From Steroidobacteraceae bacterium (GTDB lineage: Bacteria > Pseudomonadota > Gammaproteobacteria > Steroidobacterales > Steroidobacteraceae): 64,000 bases of DNA. The stretch lies in the NCBI GenBank assembly GCA_035542375.1, contig DATKLO010000101.1, positions 1,209 to 65,208 on the forward strand. The letters are read 5' to 3'. This document shows positions 2,992 to 54,492 of the stretch, piece by piece (within the stretch, counting starts at the first letter, position 1; the number at the start of each line of letters is the position of its first letter). A model generated the notes under the pieces. It searched no databases. It worked only from the letters and a program-made list of their open reading frames with translations, and was not told where the DNA came from. Position numbers and translations under genes: made by a program.

Positions 2992-3046
2992 GAGCGGAGG
3001 ATTCCCTGGAACCTGAGCTGGGAGCGGGACACGACCCGCAGCTCTC

Positions 3047-3060
3047 GATTATCGATAATC
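3047..3060. promoter_or_regulatory. Perfect 14-bp palindrome GATTATCGATAATC, about 55 nt upstream of the RND start
   Basis: The sequence equals its own reverse complement. It shares GATTA/TAATC half-sites with the palindrome at 3206-3222. Confidence 0.4.
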
Positions 3061-3205
3061 CATCGCTGCCCGCAACCTGTCAAAAGGGAGAGATCCCGGC
3101 GCCGCCAGCCAGGATCTGCGGCGGCGGCGCCCGCGGGCGCGCCACAACCCCCGGAAGTGCAAAGAAGAGTCCGCTGCCGGTTGAACCTGCTGGCTCTGTC
3201 GGGGT

Positions 3206-3222
3206 CGATTACAATGTAATCG
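3206..3222. promoter_or_regulatory. Perfect 8-1-8 palindrome CGATTACA-A-TGTAATCG, upstream of the BI-1-like gene
   Basis: Read directly. It has the same GATTA...TAATC half-sites as 3047-3060 and lies in the 326-nt divergent intergenic region. Confidence 0.4.
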
Positions 3223-4070: not shown

Positions 4071-4540
4071 CCACGCAGCGGCCGGTCCATCAGCTCGAAT
4101 CCCGCGCGCTCGATATAGCCGCGGCGCCGGTAGAACTCGCGGGCGGCGGTGTTCTGCCGCCCGAGTTGCAACTGCAACCTCACGCAGCCCTCGTTCGCCA
4201 GTTCGCGTTCGGCCGCATCGAGCAGCGCCGCCCCTACTCCACGCGAGCGTGCTGACTCACGCACGAAGAACTCGTCGATCTCGGCCATCAACCCCTGATG
4301 CTCGAGACTGAACATGCGCACGGCGATCAGATAACCGAGCGCGACGCTCTGCTGGCTCGCCAGCCAGACTGCACCCAGGGGCGCCGGCTCTCCGGCCGGC
4401 GGCAGCAATCGAGCCAGAAGTAGCTGGATGCGCGCCGCATCGAAGCCCTCGATCCCCTCGAACGCCCAGTACTCACCGACGAGCGGCACGAGGTGCGCGA
4501 TGTCAAAGGAGTCAGCGCGGCGCACCAGCAGCGGATTCAC
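4064..4540 (-). CDS. GNAT family N-acetyltransferase
   Basis: The C-terminal 158 aa of track ORF 4064..4819 carry the acetyl-CoA motif (RSRGVGAALL...REFYRRRGY). The GTG start at 4540 overlaps the upstream peptidase stop (GTGA). The longer ATG-start version would overlap the peptidase gene. Confidence 0.75.
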   Translation of the reverse strand: MNPLLVRRADSFDIAHLVPLVGEYWAFEGIEGFDAARIQLLLARLLPPAGEPAPLGAVWLASQQSVALGYLIAVRMFSLEHQGLMAEIDEFFVRESARSRGVGAALLDAAERELANEGCVRLQLQLGRQNTAAREFYRRRGYIERAGFELMDRPLRGY

Positions 4541-33903: not shown

Positions 33904-36498
33904 CTACGACTCGCTGGCGTCATCCTGACGGCGCGCCAGCTTCACGGCCGCCACTCGCGATGCGACTCCGAGCTTCGCCAGGATGGCCGATACGTGCCGG
34001 TCAACGGTCCGGGTGGAAAGAAACAGCCGTTTGGCAATCGCTCCATTGGTCAGACTCTCGGACATCAGCGCCAGAATCTGCGCTTCCCTGCGTGTCAGGC
34101 CCCGTGGATGACTCCTGGTGGAATCACGCTGTCCGCGCGGCACGTTGCGTATTCCGTCCTGACGCATTCGCCTCCTGAGCATCGCGATCGCGGGCCACGC
34201 TCCGAGTCGCTGCAACTGCTCGAGTGCCTCAAGCTGCTGAGGCTCTTCGCCGCAATCCGCAAGGACACGCGCGGTTTCATATGGGCAGCCGAGTTCCGAC
34301 CAGGCGTTGGCCGCAGCCTTCCAGTCACGCGAGAGTTCCAGGCGGTACGGCGCGGCAATGTCATCAGGCGTTGCCTCGAGTTCCCCCACGGCACGAAGCG
34401 CCGCGGTCAGCGCACCCTTCAGCCAGGGATCCCGCTGTCGGGCAGCCAGTTCATAGGCTGACCGGACGTACCCGGATACCTCTTCCCACTGATCCGTCAG
34501 CCGACCCAGATCGGCCAGGGCCACCGCCACCGGCCCGATCCTTTGCAGCTCCTGGGTGGTATCCGCCAGTGTCCGGGCTTCCTCCAGCACCGCGCGGGCA
34601 TCGGGATCGCCGCGCCGAACCCGCAGGTGCCCGATTACCGTGAGGGCCGGCAGGCGACTGACATTGATGGCACGTGGATGCCGCAGCACAGCTTCCGCAT
34701 CCTCGCTCGCCGCATCCCAGTCGCCGCGCTCGAAATTCAGGCGCGCCCGCCAGGCAAGCATGTAGAGCCGCCAAGAGTCCAGATCGTGCGCTTCACAATA
34801 GGCCAGCCCGGCTCCCAGGGCTTTCTGCGCCGCTTCATAGCGCCGCGCCGCGGTGGAACTGGAAGAGAGGTTCGTATACGCACGCGCCGCGTGTTCCTGC
34901 AGACCATGCTCCAGCGCCAGAGCCAGGCTCCGGTCGAGATCCGCCCAGCCGCCTTCATCGCCACCCATCGACCGCGATGTACCCCGGTTGTTGAGAGCGT
35001 GGCTCAGCGTATCGATATCCTCCAGTCGCTCCGCGAGTTCGATCGCGCGGTTGGCCCAGCTCACGGCCGCCACCGTGTCGTGAGCCAACATCCGCAGTTG
35101 CGATTGATTGCTGTAGGCCATTGCAAGTTCCCGGCCAGGTGCAAGCCCATCCAGTGTGGTGATCGCGGCGTTCGCGTAGCGATCCGCGTCCGCACCCCGT
35201 CCCGCGAACCAGCTCAGACGCGACATCCAGCGCAGCGTGTCGCCTTCCTCCCGTGTTCGACCCTGCGAGCGCCAGTGCGTGAGGGCCTCGAGACGCGCGG
35301 CGAGCGCCTGTTCGGTTTGACCGGTCAGGTAGTACTCGTACGACAGATGCTGTTGCAGCTGTGCCCGCTCGTCACCCGACAGGCGCGCTCCATACCTGAG
35401 GGCTGCCTCGAAATGTGCCGCAGCCTCCCGATGCGAACCCACCGATCCAGCCTGCGCAGCCGCAACAGGTGCCAGCCGCAACACGGCGTCCGCGTCCCTG
35501 GCCCCATCGGCATGGTGCACGAGTCGGGCCGCGGGTATATCAGACTGGGCCGCGAGCAACCTGAGCGCCTGGGCGTGCAGACTCTGCCGCAGCGTCGGGA
35601 GCAGGGATTCCTCCACGGCTCGGCGCACCAGCTCGTGGCGGAATCCCAGGGTGTCATCGTCGTGCAGCACCATGCCCACTTCGACACATCCCGCTATGGC
35701 TGCATCGTCTGCCTGCAACGCCTGACGGACCAGCGACAGTTCCGTCTTGCCGGGCACCACAGACACGAGCTCCGCGACCTGCCTGGCCGCGGGGGAAAGG
35801 CGCGCGGTCCGCGCGAGCACCGCGTCGCGAACCGTCGCCGGAACGGAGTCGATGCCCGACGCCAGCACTTCCGTGACGAACAGGGGATTGCCAGCGGTGA
35901 TGCGGTAGAGACCTTCCGGCGAACGCCCCGCGGCGCGGGCCAGTTCGGCAACCGCGGCCTCGGACAGCGGCGTGATCGAGACCCGCGCCATGTTCGCGCG
36001 CGGCAGATCGCCGATCACCCCGCGCAAGGGGTGCTTCGAGTTGACTTCATCGTCGCGGAAGGAGACCGCGATCATCGAGCGGGTGGTGTGAATGCGCCGT
36101 CCCAGGAACTTCAGCAGATCGAGTGTCGCCTCGTCCGCCCAGTGCATGTCCTCGAACACCACCAGTGTCGGTTCACGTTCCAGCTCATCGAGCGCCAGCG
36201 CAAAGAGGTCCTCGCGCCGGGCCCCGGAACCGAGTGCCGTCAGCAGCGCTCCGCCGGTCCGTCGGGCCACATCCCACAACGGCGCCAACGGGCGCGGCGC
36301 GAACAGATCGTCGCACCCTCCCCACAGCACCCGCACCGCGGTCTGCGCCGCGGCGAATTCGCGCAGCAACAGGGTCTTGCCCACGCCGGCTTCGCCACCA
36401 ACCAGCACCACGATGCCCGACTCGGTGCGCGCACCCTGCAGTCGTTGCGCGAGATCGGCAAGCAGACGCTCTCTTTCGAGCAACTTCACTCGGCTCAT
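33904..36498 (-). CDS. Large ATP-binding LuxR-family regulator (LAL/MalT-like STAND: AAA ATPase, TPR, LuxR HTH)
   Basis: GGEAGVGKT Walker [18 protein letters not shown] Walker B, TPR-like middle region, C-terminal LTRREAQILALM...[16 protein letters not shown] prefer the start MSRVKLLERERLL. Confidence 0.9.
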   Translation of the reverse strand: MSRVKLLERERLLADLAQRLQGARTESGIVVLVGGEAGVGKTLLLREFAAAQTAVRVLWGGCDDLFAPRPLAPLWDVARRTGGALLTALGSGARREDLFALALDELEREPTLVVFEDMHWADEATLDLLKFLGRRIHTTRSMIAVSFRDDEVNSKHPLRGVIGDLPRANMARVSITPLSEAAVAELARAAGRSPEGLYRITAGNPLFVTEVLASGIDSVPATVRDAVLARTARLSPAARQVAELVSVVPGKTELSLVRQALQADDAAIAGCVEVGMVLHDDDTLGFRHELVRRAVEESLLPTLRQSLHAQALRLLAAQSDIPAARLVHHADGARDADAVLRLAPVAAAQAGSVGSHREAAAHFEAALRYGARLSGDERAQLQQHLSYEYYLTGQTEQALAARLEALTHWRSQGRTREEGDTLRWMSRLSWFAGRGADADRYANAAITTLDGLAPGRELAMAYSNQSQLRMLAHDTVAAVSWANRAIELAERLEDIDTLSHALNNRGTSRSMGGDEGGWADLDRSLALALEHGLQEHAARAYTNLSSSSTAARRYEAAQKALGAGLAYCEAHDLDSWRLYMLAWRARLNFERGDWDAASEDAEAVLRHPRAINVSRLPALTVIGHLRVRRGDPDARAVLEEARTLADTTQELQRIGPVAVALADLGRLTDQWEEVSGYVRSAYELAARQRDPWLKGALTAALRAVGELEATPDDIAAPYRLELSRDWKAAANAWSELGCPYETARVLADCGEEPQQLEALEQLQRLGAWPAIAMLRRRMRQDGIRNVPRGQRDSTRSHPRGLTRREAQILALMSESLTNGAIAKRLFLSTRTVDRHVSAILAKLGVASRVAAVKLARRQDDASES

Positions 36499-36655
36499 GG
36501 GAAAAGGCGTCGACCGATGATCCTGACACGAACGGACCGGGCAACGCACGATGGTACTGCCGCTGGCGCACCGAAGTCACCTGCCGGAAGCGGCCGGACG
36601 GTTGCGCGTATCTATAACATGATATATAAATAGTTATGCAACTGAGATCGGGAAC

Positions 36656-38023: not shown

Positions 38024-40615
38024 TCAGCGGCCACCCGATTCCGGGTCGCTGCTCGAACTGCCGATGACCGCGGCAGCCTCGGCGCGTGTCCTGACACCGA
38101 GCTTGGCCAGAATCGCCGAGACGTGGTGATCGACCGTCTTGGTGGACAGATAGAGCCGCTTGGCGATGGCGGAATTGCGCATGCCCCGCGCCACCAGGGC
38201 CAGAATCTCCGCCTCGCGCCGGGTGAGCCCGAAAGCATTGCGCCGAGTCGATTCCTTGACGCCGCGGGGTACGTTGCGGACACCCTGTGCGCGCATCTTC
38301 TTGCGCAGCAGACGCTCGGCAGGCGCTGCTCCCAATTCCTTGAAAAGGGTCAACGCCTCGCGCTGCTCGGCCTCACCGCCGTGACAACACAGCACACACG
38401 CATATTCATATGTGCATCCCAGGGACTTCCACACTGCGGCGGCGCCACGCCAGTCACCGGCGATCTCGAGGGCATAAGGGTCTGAAACATCGGACGGTGT
38501 TTCATCAAGCGCTCCGACCCGAATCAACCAGACCGCAAGTTCTCCCTTCATGCGAGGATCCCGGCGCGCGCGCACCAGTTCATACGCGGTGCGAGCCTCC
38601 CGGATGACACCTTCACGGTCCTCGGTCAACCAGGCGGCCTCGGCCCGAATTGCCGCGAGCGTGCCCACCCGCTGCAGCTCACGTGCGCTACCTGCAAGCT
38701 CCTCCGCCTCCCTGATGGGTGTGGCAGCGTCGGGATCACCGCGCCGCACGCGCATGTGCCCGACGATCCGGAGCGCCGGGATCCGGGTAACAGCTGTGGC
38801 TCGCGGGTGCCGAAGCACGATCTCCGCATCCGCACTGGCGCCGTCCCAATCGTCCCGCTCGAACTTCAGACGGGCGCTGTAGGCCATGAGGTACAGCCAC
38901 CACGAATCGAGATCATGGTCCTCGCAGTACCGCAGGCCATCCTGGAGAAAAGCCAGCGCGCGCGCGTACTCGCGCCGCGAGACCGCCATCGCACAGCAGT
39001 TGGTGTAGGCGCGAGCCAGTTCGATCTGCAGGCCCTGTTTCAAGGCAATCCCGAGGCAGCGCTCGAGATCCGCCCAGCCGGCTTCATCCGCAGCGATCAG
39101 CCGGGTCGTGCCGCGCGTGTTCAGTGCATCGGCGAGTATCTCAAGCTGTCGGTTGGGTTCCGCCCAGGCGATGGCACGCCCCGCCCATTCGATCGCGGAA
39201 TCGATCTCGTGCGCCTCCATGTCGAGCTGCGCCCGGTTGGCATACGCCATGGCGAGCTCCGCGCCGGGCGGATCGGAACCCAGAATCCCGACCGATTCCG
39301 CCGCGTACTGTTCCGCCTGGCGACGCCGCCCCACGAACCAATGAAGCCGCGACAGCCAGCGCAGGGTATCGGCTTGCTTGAGGCGATTGCCCGCAAGACG
39401 CCAGACCCGCAGGGCCGCCTCGCGCGCGACGATGGCGCGTTCATGCTGGCTGGTGAGGTAGCACTCGAAAGCGAGTAGTTCCTGAAGGCGGGTACGCTCC
39501 AGTGGGGAAACATCGTCCGAATAGCGCAACGCCATCTCGTAATGCGACACCGCCTCCCGGTGCGCACCCACCGTTGCGGCCTGATCGGCCGCGATGGCGG
39601 CGAGCCTGCGGACTGCGTCGCCATCGCGAGCACCGTCGGCGTGGTGGGCAAGCCTGGCTGCCGACACATCCGGGCGGCCAGTGAGCGCTTTAAGTGCCGC
39701 GGCATGCAGACTCTGCCGCTGTTGCGGAAACAGCGAGTCCTCGAGCGCTCGCCGCACGAGCTCATGCCGGAACCCGATCGAGCCATCCGCATGCAGCACC
39801 ATCCCCATGCTGACACAACCGGCGATCCCCGACTGGTCAACGCACAGCGCGCTCTCGAGCAACCAGGGTTCAGCCTTGCCCGGCACGACACAGACGAATT
39901 CCGCGATCGCACGGGCCGAGGGTGAGAGCCGCGCCGCGCGCGCGAGCACGGCATCACGCACGGTCGCCGGCACGGAATCAACACCCGAAGCGAGAACCTC
40001 CGTCACGAACAGAGGGTTGCCCCCGGTGATCTTGTAGAGATCACCGGCCGCATGCGCCGCCACGCCGGCGAGTTCCGCCACGGCCGATTCCGACAGGGGC
40101 ACGAGAGACACCCTTCGTGTGCTGGCGCTCGGCAAGTCACCGATGACCATCCGCAGAGGATGTTGCGTACCGAGCTCATCGTCCCGGAATGTCGCGGCAA
40201 TCATCGAACGCGTGGTGTGAATGCGCCGGCCGAGAAACTTCAGCAGGTCGAGTGTCGCTTCATCCGCCCAGTGCATGTCCTCGAGTACGAGCAGGATGGA
40301 TTCGCGCTCGAGTACGGTCAGAGCCAGTGAAAACACGTGTTCGCGCCGATCCTTGGAAGTCAGCGCCTCCAGTAGCTCGCCTCGTATCTGTCGGGCGATG
40401 TCCCAGACCGGTGCCAGCGGCCGGGGCGTCGACAGATCGTCACACCCGCCCCACAACACGCGGACGCCCGCCCGGGACGCGAACTCACGCAGCAGCGTTG
40501 TCTTGCCGACGCCAGCTTCGCCGCCGATGAGCATCACGCAGCCCGCTCGAGTGCGCGCGGCCTCGAGCCACATCGCGAGGTCGGTCAGCAACCGGTCTCT
40601 TTCCAGCAGTTTCAC
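38024..40615 (-). CDS. Large ATP-binding LuxR-family regulator (LAL/MalT-like), paralog of 33904..36498
   Basis: Same architecture as its paralog. The N-terminal about 150 aa are very similar ([39 protein letters not shown] identical run). LuxR HTH at the C-terminus. Confidence 0.9.
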
Positions 40616-42069: not shown

Positions 42070-42394
42070 GCGGCGGCTGCCGACAGGCGCCCGGTGCAGC
42101 GCGGATGGACTGTTTCAGTCATTGTGACCGCTGCCCGTTCGGGTGATGGCCCGGGGACCCCGGACCGAGGGTATGTCATATCCCTGTGCAATTCCAAGCA
42201 TTCGGCTGGGTCTGGTTGAGTTCCACGGTCGCGCGAGCGGCTGCGGTGCCCTCCGGGTCCACTCTGCGCCAAACCCGACAATATGCCTCCCAACCCATAC
42301 GCACTTACCCTCGCCTCCTAGGTAGACGCCACGCTGGTCAGCTTTGTACGACAGACTATCTTGATGGCACCTCTGGCATCCCGGGCGCGCACTC

Positions 42395-43825
42395 ATGCGA
42401 ATCGAAGGCCGTCGCTACTTTCAGTGCGCCATCGCATGCTCCGGACTGCTGGCGTTGCTGCTCGCCTTCCCCGTCCGCTCGGTTCCGAGCTTTGCACGGC
42501 AAACCGGGATGGCCTGCGAGGCCTGTCACACGGTTTACCCGGAACTGACCCACTTCGGCCGGGTCTTCAAAGCCAACGGTTACGTCCTGGACAACGTGAA
42601 ACAGGTCCGGGACGTGGACGCCCGCAGATCCGAACTGCTCGAGCTCGCGCAGATTCCGCCGCTGTCGATCATGGCTCAGGTCTCGTACACGCAGCTGAAG
42701 ACTCCGCTGCCGGACCTCGCTAACGTCTCGGTCCCGGGTGAAGCGCAAAACGGCACGGCCGCATTTCCGCAGCAGCTGAGCCTGTTCTATGCGGGCAAGA
42801 TCGCGCCGCATTTCGGCGCCTTCTTCCAGCTCACCTATGGCAACGATTCGGGCTCCATCGGCATCGACAATACCGACCTGCGCTTCGCCGACATGCGGAT
42901 TCTGGGCGAGGATCGCAGCCTGATCTACGGCGTCTCGGTCAACAACAATCCCACCGTGCAGGACTTGTGGAATTCGACGCCCGCATTCGGATTTCCCTAC
43001 GCGACGAGCAACGCCATGGTGTCGCCATTGGCCGCAACGATGATCGACGGCACGCTAGCCCAGGACGTCGCGGGAATCAGCGCCTACGCGTTCTGGAACG
43101 AGTCGGCCTACGCGGAATTCGGAGTCTATCGATCGGCGAAGCAGGCTGCGGCCAACCAGCTCACCGGTGCCGCCGGCCCCCTGGACGGAACGGTATCGAA
43201 CGTCATCCACGGTGTAGCGCCGTACTGGCGATTCGCGTACGAGCATAACTGGGGCCACCATTCCCTCGAGGCGGGTCTTTATGGACTGGAAGTCAGACTG
43301 CTTCCCGGCGGCAGTCCGGCGGCGCCGTCTGCGTTGCAGGGCCCGTACAATCGCTTCAACGACGTCGCCGAGGACGTCCAGTATCAGTTCATAGCGGACC
43401 AATTCCTCGTCACGGCAGCGGCCACGCGCATCCATGAAAGCATGTCACTGGCGGCGAGCCAGGCATCCGGCGCGGCGAGCAACCTGTCTGATTCCCTGAC
43501 CACGACTCGCGTCAGTTCCACCTGCTACTATCGCAGGCGCATCGGCGGCACGCTCGCGTACTTCGCGACGACCGGCAGCGCGGACTCTGATCTGTATCCG
43601 TCCCCTGCTGCGGGGAGTGCGGGTGTGATCACCAGCGCCAACAACCGCCCAGACACGCGGGGTTGGATGCTGGAGGCGAATTACCTGCCCTGGCTCAATA
43701 CCAAGCTGTCGGTGCAGTACACACGCTACCTGAAATTCAACGGGGGCAGCGCCAATTACGATGGGGTCGGGCGTTCAGCCTCGGCAAACGACACGTGGTA
43801 CTTCCTGCTCTGGTTCGCCTACTGA
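42395..43825 (+). CDS. Fused monohaem cytochrome c / outer-membrane beta-barrel protein (Cyc2-like)
   Basis: A signal peptide is followed within about 10 residues by SFARQTGMACEACHTVYPEL (CxxCH then PxL). About 430 aa follow with alternating beta-strand character. The sequence ends FLLWFAY, an aromatic OMP C-terminus. Confidence 0.65.
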   Translation: MRIEGRRYFQCAIACSGLLALLLAFPVRSVPSFARQTGMACEACHTVYPELTHFGRVFKANGYVLDNVKQVRDVDARRSELLELAQIPPLSIMAQVSYTQLKTPLPDLANVSVPGEAQNGTAAFPQQLSLFYAGKIAPHFGAFFQLTYGNDSGSIGIDNTDLRFADMRILGEDRSLIYGVSVNNNPTVQDLWNSTPAFGFPYATSNAMVSPLAATMIDGTLAQDVAGISAYAFWNESAYAEFGVYRSAKQAAANQLTGAAGPLDGTVSNVIHGVAPYWRFAYEHNWGHHSLEAGLYGLEVRLLPGGSPAAPSALQGPYNRFNDVAEDVQYQFIADQFLVTAAATRIHESMSLAASQASGAASNLSDSLTTTRVSSTCYYRRRIGGTLAYFATTGSADSDLYPSPAAGSAGVITSANNRPDTRGWMLEANYLPWLNTKLSVQYTRYLKFNGGSANYDGVGRSASANDTWYFLLWFAY

Positions 43826-43836
43826 GAGGGATGCCC

Positions 43837-44508
43837 ATGAACAGCCATGCGCGGCCAGTCCCCCTGTTCGAGTCACGTCACTCGTTTTTTCTTGCGATCC
43901 TGGCCACAGCCATGAGCTTCGTTGCGCCGGAAGCCAATGCGCAGACGGCAAGTGACGCCGGGCACCTCGCGACTCTCAACGCACGCAATCTCGCCGTCGG
44001 CGTCTGCGGCACCTGTCATGGCGCGCGTGGCAATAGCGTGCAGCCGAAATTTCCACGGCTGGCGGGCCAGGATGCCGGTTATCTCGCCGCGCAGTTGCGC
44101 AACTTCCGTTCGCAGACACGTGGGGATCCGGACGCGATCGGATACATGTGGGGCATGGCTGCGGAATTGTCAGACGAGACCATAGAGGCGCTGGCGAAGT
44201 ACTACGCAGGCCAAAAGCCAGTTGGCGCGAACGCACGGGAAGTCTCCGCGGGCTCCCACGGCCGGGAGATCTACGAACGCGGAATCGCAGCCGAAGGTGT
44301 GCCAGCCTGCGCCGCGTGTCACGGCGCGGACGCGCACGGCACGGCGACCTTCCCTCGCCTTGCCGGTCAGCATGCCCAATATGTCCTCAAGCAGCTTGGA
44401 TCGTTCCAGACGAACATGCGCAACGTGGCCGTCATGCATGGCGTTGCGCTGAATCTGCGTCTGTCGGAGATGGAAGAGGTCGCCGCTTATCTCGAGTCTC
44501 TGCCCTAG
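43837..44508 (+). CDS. Dihaem cytochrome c4-type, periplasmic
   Basis: Two CxxCH motifs (CGTCHG, CAACHG), each followed by a Met-containing distal-ligand region. Signal peptide present. GAGGG RBS. The start lies 12 nt after the upstream stop. Confidence 0.85.
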   Translation: MNSHARPVPLFESRHSFFLAILATAMSFVAPEANAQTASDAGHLATLNARNLAVGVCGTCHGARGNSVQPKFPRLAGQDAGYLAAQLRNFRSQTRGDPDAIGYMWGMAAELSDETIEALAKYYAGQKPVGANAREVSAGSHGREIYERGIAAEGVPACAACHGADAHGTATFPRLAGQHAQYVLKQLGSFQTNMRNVAVMHGVALNLRLSEMEEVAAYLESLP

Positions 44509-44513
44509 ACGCC

Positions 44514-44963
44514 TCACTCCACTTTGACGCGCGTACCCTTCAGTGTCGTGGCAAGAGGGGACCCCCGCTCATTGCCTTCGGAATCGTAGAACCTCGCCTG
44601 CGCATCCCCCGTGAACACGTCATCCCGGACGCTGAGTGAGAAAGTGATCTCCGTGCGGCCAGCGAACCTGTGGGTGTTCCGGTCGGCCGTGATCTCCACC
44701 CACTTCCCCCTGGTCCTTCCCGCCTGTGATACCCAGACACCCTTGCCGTCGCTGTCGCTCGTTCCGGCATCCCCGGCATCCGGATTGGCCTGCTGCATGG
44801 TGCCGTCGGCGTTGAAGACGTACATGTGATACGGAAAGGGCGCCGCACTGTCCTTCACGATCCACGTTCCGACGATCGCCCTTCCGCCCTCGCCCGCCGC
44901 GGTACACGCCCACAGCGCGCACGCCATGAGCACCAAACCCGGTGCCGGCAGTATCCGGCGCAT
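44514..44963 (-). CDS. Small lipoprotein (hypothetical)
   Basis: I prefer the start MRRILPAPGLVLMAC, which has a lipobox-like LMAC. The beta-rich body has no recognised family. Confidence 0.55.
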   Translation of the reverse strand: MRRILPAPGLVLMACALWACTAAGEGGRAIVGTWIVKDSAAPFPYHMYVFNADGTMQQANPDAGDAGTSDSDGKGVWVSQAGRTRGKWVEITADRNTHRFAGRTEITFSLSVRDDVFTGDAQARFYDSEGNERGSPLATTLKGTRVKVE

Positions 44964-44977
44964 CGTGTGAAAGCGGT

Positions 44978-45838
44978 TCACGTAACGGGCTTTGAGCCGC
45001 CAAAGTAAGGCGCGAGTTCGAAGGCCCGCAACGCCTCGCACAGATCCCGGTCCTCCTCGGCAAACGCGCACACGTCGAAATACGGCACGGCGACGCCATT
45101 CACCCGGTTCGAGCACAGGTAACCGTTCAGGTCGATGAACTGCGCGGCGTGGGTCGCACCCAGATGGATGAGATAGTTGCCGAAGTTGTCGTACACGATG
45201 AAATACCGGTAGCCCGCCTGCAAGAGCGCCTGGTAGCTGCCGATGCCGTCAGCCACTCCGTTGGGCTGCTCGAACGGGGCGTATTCGTAGTACAGGACGG
45301 GCTTGAGTTCGGCCAGCAGTTCGACCGATGTCATGATGATCTGGAAGTCGAAGCCGTCCGTGTCCGTCTTGATGAGCCGCGGCCGCGAGAAGCCGGCAGC
45401 CCCCGTCAGCAGTTCGCGCAGGCTCCTGACTCTGATGTCGCCGCCCCGGTTCGGGTCGGACACCAGCTTGGCCGTGCCGGCCTCGGTACTCTGCAGGGCA
45501 TAGACGTTGGCCGATGCAGCATCCCCGACGAAGGCCGCTTCGATGGCGATATGCGGGCCGATCCGCCGCGCGTTCTCCCGCAGAAACGGCAGAAACGCCT
45601 CGCCCCCCTCGATACAGAGAGTGGGTATGTCGTGGTAGGTATTGATGAGCGCAGCGGTGTCACCGACGTTCGCCCCGATATCAATCGCCGTCGAATCCGG
45701 ATATTTCTGCCAGACGAGCCGGGCGATCTCACCGAGCGCGCGGTCGTAGCGCTTCCAGCGGGCCTGGTACCGATCCAGGGCATGATCGGCAGGCAGCTGC
45801 AGACTGGTACGGCCGATGGTGTATTCCTTTACCTGCAT
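44978..45838 (-). CDS. FkbM family methyltransferase
   Basis: IDIGANVGDT SAM motif and LIKTDTDGFDFQII, typical of the FkbM family. Confidence 0.8.
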   Translation of the reverse strand: MQVKEYTIGRTSLQLPADHALDRYQARWKRYDRALGEIARLVWQKYPDSTAIDIGANVGDTAALINTYHDIPTLCIEGGEAFLPFLRENARRIGPHIAIEAAFVGDAASANVYALQSTEAGTAKLVSDPNRGGDIRVRSLRELLTGAAGFSRPRLIKTDTDGFDFQIIMTSVELLAELKPVLYYEYAPFEQPNGVADGIGSYQALLQAGYRYFIVYDNFGNYLIHLGATHAAQFIDLNGYLCSNRVNGVAVPYFDVCAFAEEDRDLCEALRAFELAPYFGGSKPVT

Positions 45839-47391: not shown

Positions 47392-47588
47392 GACGGAGCG
47401 GCCCCCGGATGAAATCGCCGGCTAGAATGCGCTGTAAAGCGGAAGCGGCGCAATGACGAGCGGGAGAGGCGACCCGTGTCGCTTCAGCGCAGCGCGATGT
47501 CGCTCTTATGCAACAATTGTGACGGGGAGCGTTCATTGATTGGCCGCCGCGTTCGTGTAATTGACAACGTCACCGCTTGCGGTTTCTT

Positions 47589-49640
47589 ATGGCTGCACAC
47601 GAGGTCTCTGGGATCTTTAATGTGAGCTCTCCAGCGGAGCCATTGGGTACCCTTGAGGTGGCGCTCGCTCACGCAACGCGGATGCTGCGTGGCGATCCGA
47701 AGCTGGCTGCGCAACAGGCGCGCGAAATCCTCAGGGTCGCACCCAGCCACCCGGAGGCGCTGCTGTTACTGGGTGTGGCCTCGCGTATCGCAGGAGACAT
47801 CGACACCGCGCTGGCGACGCTGGAACGGCTTGTCAGGTCCCAGCCCAACTGGGCCATGGCGCACTACGAATGGGGCGTCACCCTCGGCGATGTGGGTCGG
47901 GTGGACGCCGCGGTGCTCGAACTGCAACGTGCGGTGGCACTGAAACCCGACCTGCCCGATGCGTGGCGCGACCTCGCCAGCCAGCTGACGGTACTGGGGG
48001 ACCGGGAAGGCGCGGACCGGGCCTATGCCCGGCACATCCGCCTCTCCAACCGCTCGCCGCATCTGATGGCCGCCGCCGCGGCGCTCAGCGAGAACCAGCT
48101 GCCGCGGGCCGAGCATCTGCTGCGCGAACACCTCAAGAGGGATCCGAATGATGCGGCCGCCATCCGCATGTTCGCTGAAGTGGCCGGCCGGCTGCGCCGC
48201 TATCACGATGCGGAGAACCTGCTGGTTCGCTGCCTGGAGCTGGCGCCAGAATTCAACGCCGCCCGTTACAACTATGCGATGGCGCTGTATCGCCTGAACA
48301 AGCCCGTGGCCGCGCTGCGCCAGATCGACATCCTGATGACAAGCGAGCCGCGCAATTCCGGCTACCGCAATCTGCGCGCCGTGGTGCTGGCGAACATCGG
48401 CTCCTACCAGGAGTCGCTGGAGATCTACGCGGATGTGCTGGCCAAGCATCCGGACCAGGCGCGCATCTGGCTGAGCTACGGACATGCCCTGGCCACCGCC
48501 GGCCGGACCGAGGAAGGGATTGCGGCCTATCGCCGTTCCATCGCGCTGGTGCCCTCTCTGGGGGAGGCTTACTACAGCCTGGCGAACCTCAAGACGTTTC
48601 GTTTCGATGCGCACGACGTGGAGGCCATGCGCACGCAGCTGCAGGGCTCCGCGATCAACGACGAGGACCGCATCCATTTCCACTTCTCCCTGGCGAAGGC
48701 CCTGGAGGACTCGGGCAGCTACGCCGAGTCGTTCGAGCATTACTCCAGGGGTAACGAGCTGCGCGCCGCCCGGGTCGGTTACGACCCGGCGTCCACCTCA
48801 GACCTGGTCCAGCGCGCCAAGCGGGTGTTCACCCCGGAATTCTTCGCCAGCCGCACCAGTCACGGCTCCCCGCGACCCGATCCCATCTTCATCGTGGGCC
48901 TGCCGCGCGCCGGGTCCACCCTGCTGGAGCAGATCCTCGCGAGCCACTCCCAGGTCGAGGGCACGATGGAACTGCCCGACATCATGGCGATGGCCTCAAG
49001 GCTCGGGGGCCAGGCCGAACGGCAGCAGGACTCGGCGTACCCGGAGGTGCTGGCCGGCCTGAGCGCGCAGGAATGCCGCGCCCTGGGCGAACAGTACCTC
49101 GAGCAGACCCGCATCCAGCGCAAGACGGACAAGCCGTTCTTCATCGACAAGATGCCCAACAATTTCCTGCACATCGGGCTCATCCGGCTGGTCCTGCCCC
49201 GTGCGCGGATCATCGATGCGCGACGCCACCCGATGGCCTGCTGCTTCTCGGGTTTCAAGCAGAACTTCGCACAGGGGCAGCGCTACACCTACCGGCTCGG
49301 GGACATCGGTCGCTATTACCGCGACTACGTCGAGCTGATGGCGCACTTCGACTCGGTGCTGCCCGGCGGCATCCACCGCGTCATCTACGAGCGGCTGATC
49401 GAGGATACGGAGGCGGAAGTGCGCCGGCTGCTCGAGTTCTGCGGGTTGCCGTTCGAGCCGGGCACGCTCAGTTTCTACAACAACGAGCGCGCGGTACGGA
49501 CCGTCAGCGCCCAGCAGGTGCGCAAACCGATTTTCCGTGACGGCATCGATCACTGGCGGCACTACGAAGAGTGGCTCGCGCCGCTGCGCGCAGCGCTGGG
49601 TCCGTTGGCCGATACCTATCCGGAGGTGCCCCGGTTCTGA
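47589..49640 (+). CDS. TPR-repeat protein fused to a sulfotransferase domain
   Basis: N-terminal half has TPR repeats. The C-terminal half has the PAPS 5'-phosphosulfate loop IFIVGLPRAGSTLLEQIL and RHP...SGFKQ. ATG at 47589 preferred over TTG at 47577. Confidence 0.8.
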   Translation: MAAHEVSGIFNVSSPAEPLGTLEVALAHATRMLRGDPKLAAQQAREILRVAPSHPEALLLLGVASRIAGDIDTALATLERLVRSQPNWAMAHYEWGVTLGDVGRVDAAVLELQRAVALKPDLPDAWRDLASQLTVLGDREGADRAYARHIRLSNRSPHLMAAAAALSENQLPRAEHLLREHLKRDPNDAAAIRMFAEVAGRLRRYHDAENLLVRCLELAPEFNAARYNYAMALYRLNKPVAALRQIDILMTSEPRNSGYRNLRAVVLANIGSYQESLEIYADVLAKHPDQARIWLSYGHALATAGRTEEGIAAYRRSIALVPSLGEAYYSLANLKTFRFDAHDVEAMRTQLQGSAINDEDRIHFHFSLAKALEDSGSYAESFEHYSRGNELRAARVGYDPASTSDLVQRAKRVFTPEFFASRTSHGSPRPDPIFIVGLPRAGSTLLEQILASHSQVEGTMELPDIMAMASRLGGQAERQQDSAYPEVLAGLSAQECRALGEQYLEQTRIQRKTDKPFFIDKMPNNFLHIGLIRLVLPRARIIDARRHPMACCFSGFKQNFAQGQRYTYRLGDIGRYYRDYVELMAHFDSVLPGGIHRVIYERLIEDTEAEVRRLLEFCGLPFEPGTLSFYNNERAVRTVSAQQVRKPIFRDGIDHWRHYEEWLAPLRAALGPLADTYPEVPRF

Positions 49641-49713: not shown

Positions 49714-52221
49714 ATGACTCGTAGTCGAAAGAGAAAACTGGCGCGACTGCGCGGCAAGCTGCTCGGCATGCCGCTGGCATCGGCTGTACTGATGGGGAGC
49801 GGGATCGCGGCCGCCGCGGACGCTCCGGCGGAGGCGCCGGAGGAAGGCGCGCTCCAGGAAGTGGTGGTGACCGCACAGAAGCGCGCGGAAGACCTGCAGA
49901 AGGTCCCGATCAGCCTGCAGGTGCTCAACACCGAGAAGCTCGACCAGATGCAGGTGCATGACCTGGACGATTACACCAAGCTGCTGCCGAGCGTGACATA
50001 TCGGTCCAACGGACCGGGCCAGGCGGAACTGTTCTTCAGAGGCATATCCACCAGCTCCAGCGCAACGCCGCTGCACGCAGGCTTCCTCCCATCGAGCGGC
50101 CTGTATCTGGATGAGATACCCGTAACGACAGTCGCCGGCGCGCTCGATATCCACATCTACGACATCGCACGCGTCGAGGCCCTCGCAGGTCCACAGGGCA
50201 CCCTGTACGGCGCCAGCTCCCTGTCAGGCACGTTGCGCATCATCACGAACAAGCCCGACCCGTCAGCCTTCTCCGCCGGCTACGACTTCAAAGCCGACAA
50301 GTGGCTGCATGGTGACCCTGGCGGCAGCGTCGAAGGCTACGTGAACATTCCGCTGTCGGAGAATGCGGCGGTCCGCCTGGTCGGGTACTACGACCATGAG
50401 GGCGGTTACATCAACAATGTGTTCCGGCAGGATACGTTCCAGCGCTACTCGCCCTCCGGCACGCCCGTTGCGGGCGGACCCAACGGCGGACCGGACGGCT
50501 TCCCGAATTACGATCCCATCACGATCAACAACGCGGATGTCGTCAAGAAGCACTGGAACGATGTCAGCAGCTATGGCGGCCGCGCTGCCCTCAAGGTGGA
50601 TCTGAACGACTCCTGGACCATCACGCCGCAGCTGCTGGCCCAGAACCAGAAGACCCACGGCGACTTCGCCTTCGATCCGCATTTCGGCGACCTGAATGTC
50701 GGCGATTACTTCGAGGGTTACAACAAGGACACCTGGTACCAGTCCGAGCTGACCATAGAGGGCAAGATCAGCAACTGGGACATGGTCTACTCGGGCGGCT
50801 ACTTCACCCGTACGGTCGACAACCTGGTCGACTACTCGCAGTACTCGGTGGCGTACGACGCGCAGGCGATCGCGAACTCATACGCCTATACCCGCTTCAT
50901 CGACGCCAACGGCCAGTTGCTCGATCGTCCCGTCCAGTACACGAAGAACCGGGACAAGTACACCAAGATGAGCCATGAGTTGCGGATCTCCTCGCCGCAG
51001 GACTACCGCCTCAGGGCGACGGCCGGACTGTTCTACCAGCGCCAGACCGACAACATCCGTGCCGAGTTCGACGCGCCGAACCTGCCGGTTTACTACGAAG
51101 TGGCCGGACAGCAGGATGTGTACTACCTGTCGCAGATGGTGCGCGTCGATCGCGACTACGCCGTGTTCGGCGAGGCGAGCTTCGACATCACCAACCAGTT
51201 GAAGCTCAATGCCGGCATCCGCGAGTTCTGGGTCAACAACACGCTGGTAGGGTTTTTCGGGTTCAACGACAACGGCTATTCGACCCACAGCGGCGAGGCC
51301 CTGTGCTTCGCGGAAGGCAACCCGCTCCTGACCACGCCGGGTGTGTACACGGGCGGCCTCCTGCCCTGCGTCAATATCGACAGCAAGGTGGTCGAGAATG
51401 GCGAGACGCATCGGGTCAATCTTCAATATCAGGTCAATCCGGACCTGATGGTCTACGGAACCTACTCGACCGGCTTCCGGCCGGGTGGCAACAACCGCCT
51501 GCCGACCGCGGGGTCCTATCGCTCGGACACGCTCTCCAACTTCGAACTCGGCTGGAAGACCAGCTGGATGGATCGCCGGCTGCGCTGGAATGGCGCGCTG
51601 TTCTACGAAAAATGGAAGAACGTGCAGACCGCGGTCCAGGGACAATACGGCATCACGTCCATCGTGAATGCGGGCGACGCCAAGGTCGAGGGCATGGAGT
51701 CGGAGCTGGAGTGGGCCGCCACCGAGCACCTGACGGTATCGGCATCGGGCACGGGTCTGCTGAAACTCGAGACCACGACCGTTTTCTGCCGTCCCTCCAT
51801 TCTCGGAGTACCGCAGTCAACCTGTACGCCTGACTTCGTCGATGCACCGCCGGGTACCCAGCTGCCCGTGACTCCCAAGGTCAAGCTGAACGGAACCGCC
51901 CGGTACGCCTTCAACACGGGTCAGTACAAGACCTTCGCCCAGGTGTCGGCGTCCCACCAGAGTTCGACCACGTTCAGCCTGGAGTCAACCAGCATCTACG
52001 CTGGAAATACCCCGTCGTTCACGACAGTGGACTTCTCGGCTGGCACGGGCCTGAACAACTGGCACATCGAGGCTTACATCCAGAACGCGTTCGACAAGCG
52101 CGGTGAGCTGGGCAAGAACTCGGAGTGCAACGACCTCGTCGCGCACTACTGCCTGCTCAATGCGCACGTGTATCCGATCGCGCCGATGCAGTACGGCATC
52201 AAGTTCGGACAGAAGTTCTAG
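49714..52221 (+). CDS. TonB-dependent receptor
   Basis: Signal peptide, plug motif LQEVVVTAQKRAEDLQKVPISL, long beta-barrel, C-terminal ...YGIKFGQKF. Confidence 0.9.
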   Translation: MTRSRKRKLARLRGKLLGMPLASAVLMGSGIAAAADAPAEAPEEGALQEVVVTAQKRAEDLQKVPISLQVLNTEKLDQMQVHDLDDYTKLLPSVTYRSNGPGQAELFFRGISTSSSATPLHAGFLPSSGLYLDEIPVTTVAGALDIHIYDIARVEALAGPQGTLYGASSLSGTLRIITNKPDPSAFSAGYDFKADKWLHGDPGGSVEGYVNIPLSENAAVRLVGYYDHEGGYINNVFRQDTFQRYSPSGTPVAGGPNGGPDGFPNYDPITINNADVVKKHWNDVSSYGGRAALKVDLNDSWTITPQLLAQNQKTHGDFAFDPHFGDLNVGDYFEGYNKDTWYQSELTIEGKISNWDMVYSGGYFTRTVDNLVDYSQYSVAYDAQAIANSYAYTRFIDANGQLLDRPVQYTKNRDKYTKMSHELRISSPQDYRLRATAGLFYQRQTDNIRAEFDAPNLPVYYEVAGQQDVYYLSQMVRVDRDYAVFGEASFDITNQLKLNAGIREFWVNNTLVGFFGFNDNGYSTHSGEALCFAEGNPLLTTPGVYTGGLLPCVNIDSKVVENGETHRVNLQYQVNPDLMVYGTYSTGFRPGGNNRLPTAGSYRSDTLSNFELGWKTSWMDRRLRWNGALFYEKWKNVQTAVQGQYGITSIVNAGDAKVEGMESELEWAATEHLTVSASGTGLLKLETTTVFCRPSILGVPQSTCTPDFVDAPPGTQLPVTPKVKLNGTARYAFNTGQYKTFAQVSASHQSSTTFSLESTSIYAGNTPSFTTVDFSAGTGLNNWHIEAYIQNAFDKRGELGKNSECNDLVAHYCLLNAHVYPIAPMQYGIKFGQKF

Positions 52222-52238
52222 TCGGATCGGACCCACGA

Positions 52239-52268
52239 AGCCGGCGCCCGCGAGGGCGTCGGCTTTTT
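52239..52268 (+). terminator. Rho-independent terminator (possibly bidirectional)
   Basis: 11-bp GC-rich stem AGCCGGCGCCC/GGGCGTCGGCT (one G.U pair) with a GCGA tetraloop followed by TTTTT. It lies between the convergent TBDR and MFS genes. Confidence 0.65.
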
Positions 52269-53545
52269 CATTGTCGCTGCCGCCCGCAATCGACACTGAG
52301 CCACGCGACGGCGGCGATCAGCGCCAGCAGGGCACCGGTCTCGAATGCCGTATCCCAGTGGCCGCTGGCCGACATCGCGGCGACCAGCGGCTGACAGATC
52401 AGACCGCCCATGTTGCCACCCGTGTTGAGAACACCGGTGGCCGCACCGGAATCGGTACCCGCCGCGCGCATGGTGGCGGCCCAGTAGGGACCTTCATTGA
52501 TCTCAACCGCGGCAAAGGCAAGGGCCAGACCCAGCACCGCGCCATAGGGGTCATCGACGCGGATCGTGAATAGCAACAGTGCGCCAGCCAGAGGCAGGAA
52601 AAGCAGCGGCACGACCCGATAGCCGCGGCGCGGCCCCCAGCGCAGAACGCAACGGTCACAGATGAATCCACCGGCGGCCGCGCCCACGGCGGCTCCGATC
52701 CAGGGGATCATGCCGGCGACACCACTTTCGATGCCGGCGAAGTGGCGCACCTGGACCAGATACAGGAAGGACCAGTAGGTCAGAAGGTAGAACGCGTAGT
52801 TCATGCACAGATAGGAGAAGGTCAGCACCAGCACATCCCGGTTCCCCGCAATCTGGCCCAGGCGTCGCCAGGTCAACGGGGGTGCTGTCTCCGCACGGGA
52901 ATCGAGCTCCGCAAGTTCCTCAGCGGTCACCCGTGGGTGCTGGCGCGGCAGGTTCCGTCCATACAGACCCCAGCCGACCGTGACGAAAGCCATTGGAAGC
53001 GTGGCGAGCACGAGGGCCGTTCGCCATCCAAACGACTCCGTGAGCGCCACGACCACGAGCGGAGTCACGGCTCCGCCGATCACCATCCCGCTGCTCTGCA
53101 AGCCGTTGGCGACCGCCCACTGTCGTGTCGGGAACCACGCCTCGACCACTGAGGCGAACACGGGAAATATCGGTGCGAGCGCCACTCCGAGCACCAGTTG
53201 GGCAGCCAGGAGGGACACGAAAAGTGCCGTGCCCGTGAGTGTCATCGACAGAAATGGCAATGCCACCGTCGCCGCGAGGCTCACAATCCCGATGAACACG
53301 TAAGTTCGGCGGGCACCGAATATCTGGCCGAGAGCGCCACCGGGTATCTGCATGGCGGCATAGGTCACGAAGAATGCCGTGTTGAGCAGCCCCAGTTGCA
53401 CCTGACCGAGATGCAGGACGGGCATGAAGGTGTCCGCCGCAACCGCTACGCACGTGCGCTGTACGAAGGACATCAGCGCAAAGGCAAACATGAATATGAG
53501 GATCCACCAGCGGACTCGGATGTGCCGGAGGTTCGTTGCCGTCAT
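52268..53545 (-). CDS. MFS transporter (anion:cation symporter-like)
   Basis: 425 aa, 12 TM helices, N-terminal RVRWWILIFMFAFALMSFVQR typical of the ACS subfamily. Confidence 0.85.
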   Translation of the reverse strand: MTATNLRHIRVRWWILIFMFAFALMSFVQRTCVAVAADTFMPVLHLGQVQLGLLNTAFFVTYAAMQIPGGALGQIFGARRTYVFIGIVSLAATVALPFLSMTLTGTALFVSLLAAQLVLGVALAPIFPVFASVVEAWFPTRQWAVANGLQSSGMVIGGAVTPLVVVALTESFGWRTALVLATLPMAFVTVGWGLYGRNLPRQHPRVTAEELAELDSRAETAPPLTWRRLGQIAGNRDVLVLTFSYLCMNYAFYLLTYWSFLYLVQVRHFAGIESGVAGMIPWIGAAVGAAAGGFICDRCVLRWGPRRGYRVVPLLFLPLAGALLLFTIRVDDPYGAVLGLALAFAAVEINEGPYWAATMRAAGTDSGAATGVLNTGGNMGGLICQPLVAAMSASGHWDTAFETGALLALIAAVAWLSVDCGRQRQ

Positions 53546-54492
53546 GCCGCGCTCGCCACCCCTCTGAGCCAGGCGAGCAGCGGCTCGCGCACGATGTCCA
53601 TTTCCGAGTAGTGCCAGCGATCCTCGGTATAGCCCTCGAGCAGGTCCAGCATCGCCTTTGCGGCTGCGGGGTCTGTCCCGATTGAAGCGAGCGGATCGCT
53701 GTAGGTATGCAGGCTGAAGGCCACCGCCCGGGAATCGGACAGCCGGCTCAGGGTCTGCCGCTCCACGCGAATGAACAGAAGTTCCCCCATCCTCCCGGGC
53801 TCGCGCGCCAGGGCATCGCGGATCGCGTGCATGGCGTTCGCATTGGCCTGATGCGGGTCGTCATGGGGGAAAAACAGAGTCGCCATGGGTGTCACTTGCC
53901 AGTTGAAGCGCTCGCAGGGGGTGTCCTCGTGAACGCTCGAGAGCACCCGATCGATCCTGCCACCCAGCTTGTCGGTCAGCGTGGGCACTGGAATATGCGC
54001 CCAGTGCACCGTCTGGCCGACGGCGGAGACCAGGCGCCCCGAACTCGAATAAGCGTTGGACGTGGCGACGATGCGCATCGCCCCGTGCCTTTCCTGCAGC
54101 AACATGAAGTCTTCTTCGATGATGTCGCTGAGCTGGCGCAGCGGCTCGACCGCCGGGTCATCGAGCCGCCAGGTCAGGGATTCATGGTGTGACCTCAGCA
54201 AAGCCCCGCTCAGCGAATAGCGCTCCCCGTGGTCTGTCGCCAGGTGAGCCACCACGCGATCCCTGAGCTCGCGTTGTGCTTCGAGGGATTCGGGAAGCGC
54301 GCGGTAATAGCTGGCAGTGTGGTCGTGCAATCGCTTGCGCTTTTCGCGCATGTTGTCGGCGTGGCGGGGACTGAACTGGATCCATTCGCTCAGGCGGGTT
54401 GAGCGCAAGCCCAGTGTGAAATCCGCGCTCGCCCAGCGAAAGGGTTGGTAGGCGGGTACGGCGGCGGCCAGTTGGCCGGTTCCAGGGGGCAT
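53542..54492 (-). CDS. DUF3445 family protein (haem-dependent oxidative N-demethylase alpha-subunit-like)
   Basis: YQPFRW...FTLGL, EEDFMLLQ, FIRVERQTLSRL are patterns I associate with DUF3445. ATGA overlap with the MFS gene. Confidence 0.7.
   Translation of the reverse strand: MPPGTGQLAAAVPAYQPFRWASADFTLGLRSTRLSEWIQFSPRHADNMREKRKRLHDHTASYYRALPESLEAQRELRDRVVAHLATDHGERYSLSGALLRSHHESLTWRLDDPAVEPLRQLSDIIEEDFMLLQERHGAMRIVATSNAYSSSGRLVSAVGQTVHWAHIPVPTLTDKLGGRIDRVLSSVHEDTPCERFNWQVTPMATLFFPHDDPHQANANAMHAIRDALAREPGRMGELLFIRVERQTLSRLSDSRAVAFSLHTYSDPLASIGTDPAAAKAMLDLLEGYTEDRWHYSEMDIVREPLLAWLRGVASAA

Follow-up and report, generated by a model that had tools for sequence, protein, structure and literature searches.

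What would a Cyc2-like gene do in a bacterium whose other genes look like those of a heterotroph, and is its product a genuine Cyc2? The question is raised by a gene at positions 42395 to 43825 of a 64,000-nucleotide (nt) stretch of contig DATKLO010000101.1 (assembly GCA_035542375.1) from a Steroidobacteraceae bacterium, called the window hereafter. The answer supported by our analyses is that the protein is a true member of the Cyc2 family, in the branch of the Acidithiobacillus ferrooxidans protein (AfCyc2), and that its gene appears to be tied to a partner gene for a Cyc1-type cytochrome c4. What the pair does is a matter of graded likelihood, with Fe(II) oxidation as the reading we favour.

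The open reading frame (ORF) is real, codes for 476 amino acids (aa) and includes its stop codon. Inspection by eye and alignment revealed a positive n-region and a hydrophobic core at the N-terminus, consistent with a signal peptide, MRIEGRRYFQCAIACSGLLALLLAFPVRS, followed by VPSF; in most homologues an AxA sequence precedes VPSF at the same point. As the homologues place cleavage there, the haem motif begins approximately 12 residues into the mature protein. That motif is the sole CxxCH of the protein (C41 to H45, in MACEACH), the remaining cysteines being at positions 11, 15 and 377. The haem segment reads SVPSFARQT-GMA-CEACH-TVY-PEL, in which P49-E50-L51 forms a PxL motif three residues from His45.

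Across 37 aligned homologues, the range of which goes as low as 33% identity, R35, Q36, C41, C44, H45, L51, G55, R56 and F58 were invariant. These positions fall together in the N-terminal stretch, where the protein is conserved best and where the consensus is AVPSFARQTGxxCxACHTxFPELTPFGRxFK. The invariance of CxxCH and its flanks indicates that the haem motif is strongly constrained rather than a chance occurrence. At the other end, the protein terminates in ...WYFLLWFAY; an aromatic residue closes the sequence in 34 of 37 family members.

Cyc2 proteins have been defined by a signal peptide, one CXXCH, the sequence AXPXFAR[Q/K][T/Y], which is unique to Cyc2, a PXL motif and a 16-strand porin resembling OprO and OprP (Keffer et al. 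2021). All of these features were found in the window protein, with S instead of A at the first position of the FAR motif (SVPSFARQT), where homologues mostly have A. Scans against Pfam and NCBIfam returned nothing significant for the protein, the only listing being a chance Spt46 match (E of 0.21), and a sequence search of the PDB gave only a chance match to a ribosomal protein. The absence of a Pfam or NCBIfam model and of a sequence-similar solved structure explains why nearly all named homologues are labelled 'hypothetical protein'. These homologues are numerous: a word-indexed search returned more than 3,100, and an exhaustive search of representatives at 50% identity returned 2,992 at E ≤ 1e-3, 423 of them at E ≤ 1e-30. 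The nearest ones share 74 to 91% identity with the window protein.

We then compared the protein with characterised Cyc2s. BLASTP against AfCyc2, whose sequence was taken from the supplement of Jiang et al. (bioRxiv 10.1101/2021.03.22.436458), aligned residues 5 to 476 with residues 7 to 483 at 33% identity (E of 9e-66), and phmmer matched the Acidithiobacillus orthologue P0283, itself 81% identical to AfCyc2, at 2.3e-59. Homologues from Mariprofundaceae were retrieved with the concatenated mass spectrometry (MS) peptides of Cyc2_PV-1 (Table S1, Keffer et al. 2021). An hhalign comparison of the window family with these homologues gave a probability of 99.7 and an E value of 1.1e-25 over 365 columns, spanning the cytochrome segment and nearly the entire barrel, and a pairwise BLASTP with one of them gave 2e-9 over 125 residues. 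The MS peptides of purified Cyc2_PV-1 include QTGAACLSCHFQTFPALNAFGR (Keffer et al. 2021, Table S1), and the FARQT/CxxCH pattern is common to this peptide, to AfCyc2 (LPSFARQTGWSCAACHTSYPQL) and to the window protein. AfCyc2, Cyc2_PV-1 and Cyt572 all oxidise Fe(II) in vitro (Keffer et al. 2021).

The window protein scored approximately 208 bits against AfCyc2 and 45 to 55 bits against Zetaproteobacterial Cyc2s, from which AfCyc2 is equally far (44 to 56 bits); it is thus placed in the AfCyc2 branch. The source papers number the AfCyc2 cluster inconsistently, their text disagreeing with the extracted table. At 33% identity, the protein is no farther from AfCyc2 than the accepted Cyc2s of Ferrovum, Thiomonas and Dechloromonas, which are 27 to 30% identical to it. 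Moreover, TLZ45134.1, from a 'Gammaproteobacteria bacterium', is among the ten best BLAST homologues of AfCyc2 in the supplement of Jiang et al., and its N-terminus (AVPSFARQTGMACEAC.., ..LTHFGRVFKANGYVL..) nearly matches that of the window protein. These comparisons support the window protein as a genuine Cyc2-family member of the AfCyc2 branch.

The remainder of the protein was modelled with AlphaFold2 using the 37-sequence alignment, yielding a mean predicted local distance difference test score (pLDDT) of 82.3 and a predicted template modelling score (pTM) of 0.80. The model has exactly 16 long strands between residues 90 and 475, and short helices around the haem motif (residues 32 to 60). 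The N-terminal segment was predicted with pLDDT values of 52 to 90, and the linker at residues 69 to 87 with low confidence (below 50). AlphaFold2 predictions contain no haem. A Foldseek search of the PDB matched the 16-strand porins OmpT, OmpF, OmpC and Omp38 with E values of 1e-7 to 1e-9, as well as OprP (2o4v) and OprO (4rjw/4rjx), OprO having the top query-normalised TM-score, 0.47. OprO and OprP are the barrel templates reported for Cyc2 (Keffer et al. 2021). There is apparently no Cyc2 structure among the entries of the PDB copy searched.

An earlier note, drawn up from the DNA alone, had proposed that this gene encodes a Cyc2-like fused monohaem cytochrome-porin, and it withstood these analyses, through the full-length AfCyc2 match and the Mariprofundaceae profile comparison. 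The single CxxCH in MACEACH and the YPEL motif that it pointed out are where it saw them, its estimate of 10 residues between cleavage site and haem motif is close to the 12 found, and conservation of the CxxCH in orthologues, which it suggested as a check, extends to all 37 homologues. It had likewise described the remaining 430 aa or so as a β-barrel ending in an aromatic residue, with 16 strands expected, as the model and the C-terminus bear out.

The gene directly downstream on the same strand codes for a predicted periplasmic cytochrome c4 of 225 aa. Its start lies 6 to 12 nt past the cyc2 stop codon, depending on whether the annotated start or an alternative ATG at 43837, with a better-placed GAGGG Shine-Dalgarno sequence, is used. 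A signal peptide is present, and the two haem motifs are CGTCH (nt 44005-44019) and CAACH (nt 44308-44322). The best relative in the PDB is 1H1O (E of 7.6e-37, 41% identity over 167 aa), which is Cyc1 (CYC41), the dihaem cytochrome c4 of A. ferrooxidans; the Pseudomonas c4 1ETP ranks behind it (8.7e-32). Because the protein is also close to Pseudomonas-type c4, we call it Cyc1-type by its position and best match, not by a unique signature. The rus operon of A. ferrooxidans, cyc2-cyc1-cup-coxBACD-rus, opens with the same two genes. The earlier note had stated that nothing else in the window points to lithotrophy; it overlooked this adjoining cytochrome gene, and for the remaining genes of the window its statement holds.

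We investigated the conservation of the pair in a scan of one genome per GTDB species. At least 486 genomes encode a relative, and the best 80 were examined; together with the locus named L001, from the Steroidobacter assembly GCA_003427375.1, they make up a set of 81 loci. Almost all of the 80 genomes are metagenome-assembled genomes (MAGs) labelled Steroidobacteraceae, Steroidobacterales or unclassified Gamma- or Proteobacteria, many of them from soil catalogues. The c4 gene was found directly downstream on the same strand in 80 of the 81 loci, and the sole exception ends at a contig edge. Clustering of all flanking ORFs in the 81 loci revealed no other universal neighbour, and the other neighbours present in the window are not conserved; the unit is thus a free-standing two-gene operon. 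Judging from gene order and spacing, the two genes appear to form a cyc2-cyc1 operon corresponding to the start of the rus-operon order. 'Stand-alone cyc2 and cyc1' have already been noted in the literature. In the window, cyc1 is followed by a gene on the opposite strand that runs towards it. This ORF (44514-45116) has no family match and is not conserved beside the operon in relatives; an internal start (MRRILPAPGLVLMACALWAC...) resembles a signal or lipoprotein leader, and the 5′ end as listed overlaps an ORF for an FkbM-type methyltransferase (44978-45838).

The region upstream of cyc2 contains a candidate regulatory element composed of two sites, TACGCACTTACCCTCG (42298-42313) and TAGGTAGACGCCACGC (42319-42334), 97 and 76 nt before the start codon. 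The hexamer TA[ACG]G[TC]A occurs at positions -100 to -76 in 56 of the 81 loci (69%), compared with 3.9% of background 100-nt windows. Two or more copies were found in 13 loci, and in seven of these, the window included (TACGCA at 42298 and TAGGTA at 42319), they are 21 to 22 nt apart. The aligned sites are AT-rich and approximate TA(G/C)GTA-N4-CC(C)TTA, and some loci have in addition a TACCTA arm upstream. The literature gives as FixJ sites GTAMGTAG and GTAGTTTCCC, obtained by systematic evolution of ligands by exponential enrichment, TAAGTAATTTCCCTTA of Sinorhizobium meliloti fixK and GTACGTAG of Rhodopseudomonas palustris fixK. Counting FixJ patterns in the regions from -150 to -40 showed enrichment over background for GTAMGTAG with at most one mismatch (41% of upstream regions versus 4.7%), for GTAGTTTCCC with at most two mismatches (20% versus 4.1%) and for TAAGTA-N4-CCCTTA with at most three mismatches out of 12 (14.8% versus 0.8%). 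For example, TAAGTAGTTTCC is present upstream of the pair in L001 and TACGTAGTTTCC in L002. These data hint that the element is an operator for a FixJ-family regulator. FixJ-like response regulators themselves adjoin the pair in only about 10 of the 81 loci.

Other signals were sought in the same region. A sigma-54 reading of TGGCAC...GCAT near the start codon was discarded by eye for wrong spacing and a wrong -12 element. Some loci have a palindrome, TACCTA-N6-TAGGTA, upstream of the pair; its reading as NarL heptamers was superseded by the comparison with documented FixJ sites. Scans for a sigma-70 consensus promoter and for intrinsic terminators returned nothing above chance, no notable inverted repeat was seen in the intergenic regions of the window, and an Rfam scan of the entire window gave zero matches. 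A few kb upstream of the pair, the window encodes two paralogous regulators of approximately 870 aa (33904-36549 and 38024-40615, both on the minus strand) with an AAA_16 domain and a C-terminal GerE/LuxR helix-turn-helix (HTH) domain, resembling MalT and LAL regulators. Their GerE-type HTH belongs to the same DNA-binding class as those of FixJ and NarL.

Beyond c4, the neighbours of the pair in relatives are variable. They include hemN, for oxygen-independent coproporphyrinogen oxidase (21 of 81 loci), genes for a Pat-like acyl-CoA synthetase/GNAT protein (19), hsp20 (17), a gene for the high-potential iron-sulfur protein HiPIP within 6 kb (15), histidine kinase genes (14), a gene for a BON-domain protein (10) and genes for response regulators with a GerE-type HTH (10). 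The HiPIP gene lies within 120 nt downstream of cyc1 in four loci (L018 5759-6103, L031 2745-3065, L035 8059-8481 and L039 8116-8466), which suggests that HiPIP is a third periplasmic carrier in the chain. HiPIP genes also occur near the pair in L019 and L049, and upstream of it in L020 and L015.

Two of these loci place regulatory genes between hipip and cyc2. The gene order is hipip-kinase-response regulator-cyc2-cyc1 in L020 and hipip-kinase-response regulator-BON-cyc2-cyc1 in L015, the kinase and FixJ-like regulator genes lying at 4318-5830 and 3746-5138, respectively. The L020 regulator scored 242.8 bits on the NCBI FixJ model, below its cut-off of 255. Both kinases are short, consisting of HisKA and HATPase domains only, and their transmitter is most like that of FixL. 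In about a quarter of the loci, a block encoding a BON-domain protein, Hsp20, HemN and a divergent Pat-like synthetase/GNAT acetyltransferase of approximately 890 aa precedes cyc2-cyc1, as in L004 (575-5759) and some 20 similar loci (among them L014, L026, L028, L040 and L044). It looks like a stress or low-oxygen neighbourhood. From the FixJ-box-like element and these neighbours in relatives, we infer that the operon would be induced at low oxygen.

Table 1. Predicted features of the cyc2-cyc1 locus, in window coordinates
Feature	Position	Strand	Basis
Candidate regulator-binding element, two FixJ-box-like sites 21 nt apart	42298..42334	+	Hexamer enrichment, alignment, published FixJ sites
cyc2-like gene, fused monohaem cytochrome c and outer-membrane porin, 476 aa	42395..43825	+	ORF, alignment, profile, AlphaFold2, Foldseek, BLASTP
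Predicted Sec signal peptide, aa 1-29, cleavage between VRS and VP	42395..42481	+	Sequence inspection and homologue alignment
Cytochrome module, aa 31-51, PSFARQTGMACEACHTVYPEL, with FARQT, CxxCH (nt 42515-42529) and PxL	42485..42547	+	Motif definition of Keffer et al. 2021, invariant columns
16-strand β-barrel porin domain, aa 90-475, aromatic C-terminal residue	42662..43819	+	AlphaFold2, Foldseek, C-terminal residue statistics
cyc1-like gene, periplasmic dihaem cytochrome c4, 225 aa	43831..44508	+	Two Pfam Cytochrom_C domains, 1H1O match, synteny

Taken together, we consider it fairly probable that the pair is a cyc2-cyc1 operon for Fe(II) oxidation, with electrons passing from the porin-cytochrome to c4 and on to an oxidase, under the control of a FixJ-family regulator responding to low oxygen. 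The Fe(II)-oxidase role is inferred by homology to AfCyc2 and its partner Cyc1 and to Cyc2_PV-1. The protein would be exported by the Sec pathway, with one covalent c-type haem held in an N-terminal segment of about 25 residues ahead of the 16-strand barrel in the outer membrane. This haem, at the pore or inside it, would accept electrons one at a time from Fe(II) dissolved outside the cell and pass them to the soluble periplasmic c4, possibly joined by the HiPIP encoded alongside in some relatives. c4 would in turn deliver electrons to a terminal oxidase whose genes lie in another part of the genome. The outcome may be a supplementary, mixotrophic gain of energy or the removal of Fe(II) outside the cell. 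The FixJ-family response regulator would switch the operon on, so that it is expressed at low oxygen, where Fe(II) persists.

A number of observations weigh against this reading. The function of Steroidobacteraceae Cyc2s is extrapolated from characterised proteins, homologues distant from those may have other functions (Keffer et al.), and the family has been described as 'not associated with iron oxidation'. No oxidase, cox, cup/cupredoxin or rusticyanin genes are linked to the pair in the window or in the 81 loci, and the window has no carbon-fixation or other lithotrophy genes. The alignment of 37 homologues shows no invariant Met or second His as a distal haem ligand. As to regulation, the window's own upstream sites are degenerate, with four mismatches out of 12 to the fixK site, neither FixLJ nor HiPIP is encoded within the window (tblastn E > 0.4 for HiPIP), and the FixL-like kinases of relatives have no recognisable PAS or haem sensor domain. 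A box of the FNR/FixK type (TTGAT-N4-ATCAA), considered as another oxygen-responsive signal, was rejected, as it was found upstream in two of the 81 loci compared with 3.2% of shuffled sequences.

The same hardware might instead be an extracellular electron port of general use, without being specialised for Fe(II) oxidation, taking electrons from reduced humics, organically complexed metals or Mn(II), or running in reverse under hypoxia onto Fe(III) or humics. The A. ferrooxidans chain has been described as reversible, a Cyc2 homologue is used by Tenderia electrophaga on electrodes, and Steroidobacteraceae have been listed among lake taxa carrying genes for extracellular electron transfer. In addition, the host appears organotrophic, and the stress- and hypoxia-type genes around the pair in relatives (hemN, hsp20, BON and the FixJ-like regulator) would suit the disposal of electrons when oxygen is scarce. 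Nevertheless, every biochemically tested Cyc2 oxidises Fe(II). A single haem cannot reach insoluble acceptors across the membrane as decahaem wires of the MtrA type do. The c4 and HiPIP partners are high-potential carriers, which usually feed oxidases, and this favours inward electron flow. In our opinion, a general port is unlikely. A third possibility, which we hold to be improbable, is that the pair serves iron homeostasis, with Fe(II) oxidised at the surface under microoxia to limit Fenton chemistry and Fe(II) influx, and the electrons drained to oxygen. This detoxification would agree with the lack of evident lithoautotrophy genes in the window, with an operon standing alone without a dedicated oxidase, with the conservation of the pair across many genomes of soil heterotrophs and with the hsp20 and BON stress genes adjoining it in a subset of loci. 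However, its molecular mechanism is the same as that of mixotrophic Fe(II) oxidation, such that sequence cannot separate it from energy gain, and electrons reaching a proton-pumping oxidase through c4 would conserve energy regardless. Finally, the protein might be an ordinary diffusion porin with a vestigial CxxCH and a cytochrome gene next to it by coincidence, as its barrel resembles general porins and no Pfam or NCBIfam family is assigned to it. This is highly improbable: homologues as low as 33% in identity all keep the invariant CxxCH and flanking FARQT, PxL and FGR residues, 80 of 81 loci have the c4 gene next to cyc2, and homology to proven haem-containing Fe(II) oxidases extends over the full length. 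The conservation pattern thus effectively excludes a non-redox porin.

The rest of the window is consistent with the organotrophic appearance of the host. It encodes S9 peptidases, acyl-CoA ligases and a dehydrogenase, monooxygenases, major facilitator superfamily (MFS) and amino-acid transporters, a TonB-dependent receptor, a GGDEF/EAL protein, a molybdopterin oxidoreductase subunit and the two large AAA/LuxR regulators, a repertoire that looks heterotrophic. It holds no second copy of cyc2 and, beyond the pair, no other c-type cytochrome or multihaem ORF; just one further CxxCH is present, in an antisense ORF of 128 aa within the molybdopterin oxidoreductase gene. The possibility that the locus lies on a horizontally transferred island is unsupported, the G+C content being uniform (62.8% at the locus, approximately 65% elsewhere), with no integrase or mobility genes nearby. 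Some other features of the window deserve mention. Two long ORFs, 646-3219 (plus strand, 857 aa) and 13818-15797 (minus strand, 659 aa), have no Pfam match at E ≤ 1e-5. A fusion of tetratricopeptide repeats with a sulfotransferase (47577-49640, plus strand) is followed by the TonB-dependent receptor gene (49714-52221, plus strand), an unusual pairing. A protein resembling the α subunit of haem-dependent oxidative N-demethylase (PF11927) is encoded at 53542-54492 (minus strand), adjoining an MFS transporter gene (52268-53545, minus strand).

Cyc2 is a known family, and the locus reveals no new kind of system. The spread of Cyc2 into organisms without known iron oxidation has been documented, and the metagenome literature contains at least three reports of Cyc2 homologues in MAGs of Steroidobacteraceae. 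Added here are the placement of the protein in the AfCyc2 branch, the finding that cyc2-cyc1 synteny is near-universal across approximately 80 species-level genomes, the occasional linkage to HiPIP and FixLJ-like genes and the conserved FixJ-box-like element. As a tentative generalisation, possible rather than probable, cyc2-cyc1(-hipip) might be, across the Steroidobacteraceae, a vertically inherited, FixJ-controlled and hypoxia-induced outer-membrane electron port. Steroidobacteraceae are abundant heterotrophs of soil and freshwater. If the generalisation were true, the oxidation of Fe(II) or other extracellular reductants would belong to the mainstream, as a facultative trait of ordinary organotrophs living where oxic and anoxic zones meet, instead of being peculiar to classical iron bacteria, and control of a cyc2 operon by an oxygen-sensing two-component system would be a new regulatory link. 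Cyc2 is the most used genetic marker for microbial iron oxidation, and its meaning in organisms without known iron oxidation is an acknowledged problem. The locus offers a clean case, that of an AfCyc2 homologue that is locked to a Cyc1-type partner and is conserved in a common soil lineage, where hundreds of species-level genomes encode it. A few of the relatives are apparently on megabase-scale assemblies and may be culturable, which would make the role of Cyc2 in heterotrophs experimentally approachable, and the FixJ-like control element points to a concrete condition, low oxygen.

Among known systems, that of A. ferrooxidans is the closest. AfCyc2 (485 aa) is in the same length class as the window protein and homologous to it over the full length. 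Both have the N-terminal string [LV]PSFARQTGxxCxACHTxYPxLT, with three residues between FARQT and CxxCH and three between the His and PxL (H-TSY-PQL in AfCyc2), and their C-terminal β-signals are similar in style (...LLWFAY in the window protein, ...LLAWISY in AfCyc2). A Cyc1-type c4 gene directly follows in both organisms, and the window c4 shares with A. ferrooxidans Cyc1 both CxxCH motifs, the two-domain layout of c4 and the slot after cyc2. Nevertheless, 67% of the residues differ between the two Cyc2 proteins, and A. ferrooxidans is an acidophilic lithoautotroph, whereas the host of the window looks like a neutrophilic heterotroph. Unlike the rus operon, the window operon stops at cyc1, without cup, coxBACD and rus, and its cyc1-like gene has no rusticyanin partner nearby; conversely, the FixJ-box-like element upstream of the window pair is undescribed for the rus operon.

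With Cyc2_PV-1 of Mariprofundus ferrooxydans and the other Cluster 1 proteins (Keffer et al. 2021; McAllister et al. 2020), the window protein has in common the signal peptide, FARQTG-x2-CxxCH, PxL, FGRxFK and a 16-strand porin like OprO and OprP. The relationship is distant (45 to 55 bits), and pairwise similarity is limited to the first 130 residues or so. PxL is one residue farther from the haem His in Cyc2_PV-1, and pairwise scores place the window protein outside Cluster 1, in the AfCyc2 branch. Lastly, in the MtrAB, MtoAB and PioAB systems, an outer-membrane β-barrel likewise lets haem-mediated electrons cross. Those systems are built from a separate 26-strand porin threaded by a decahaem cytochrome, whereas the window protein unites one haem and a 16-strand porin in the same polypeptide.

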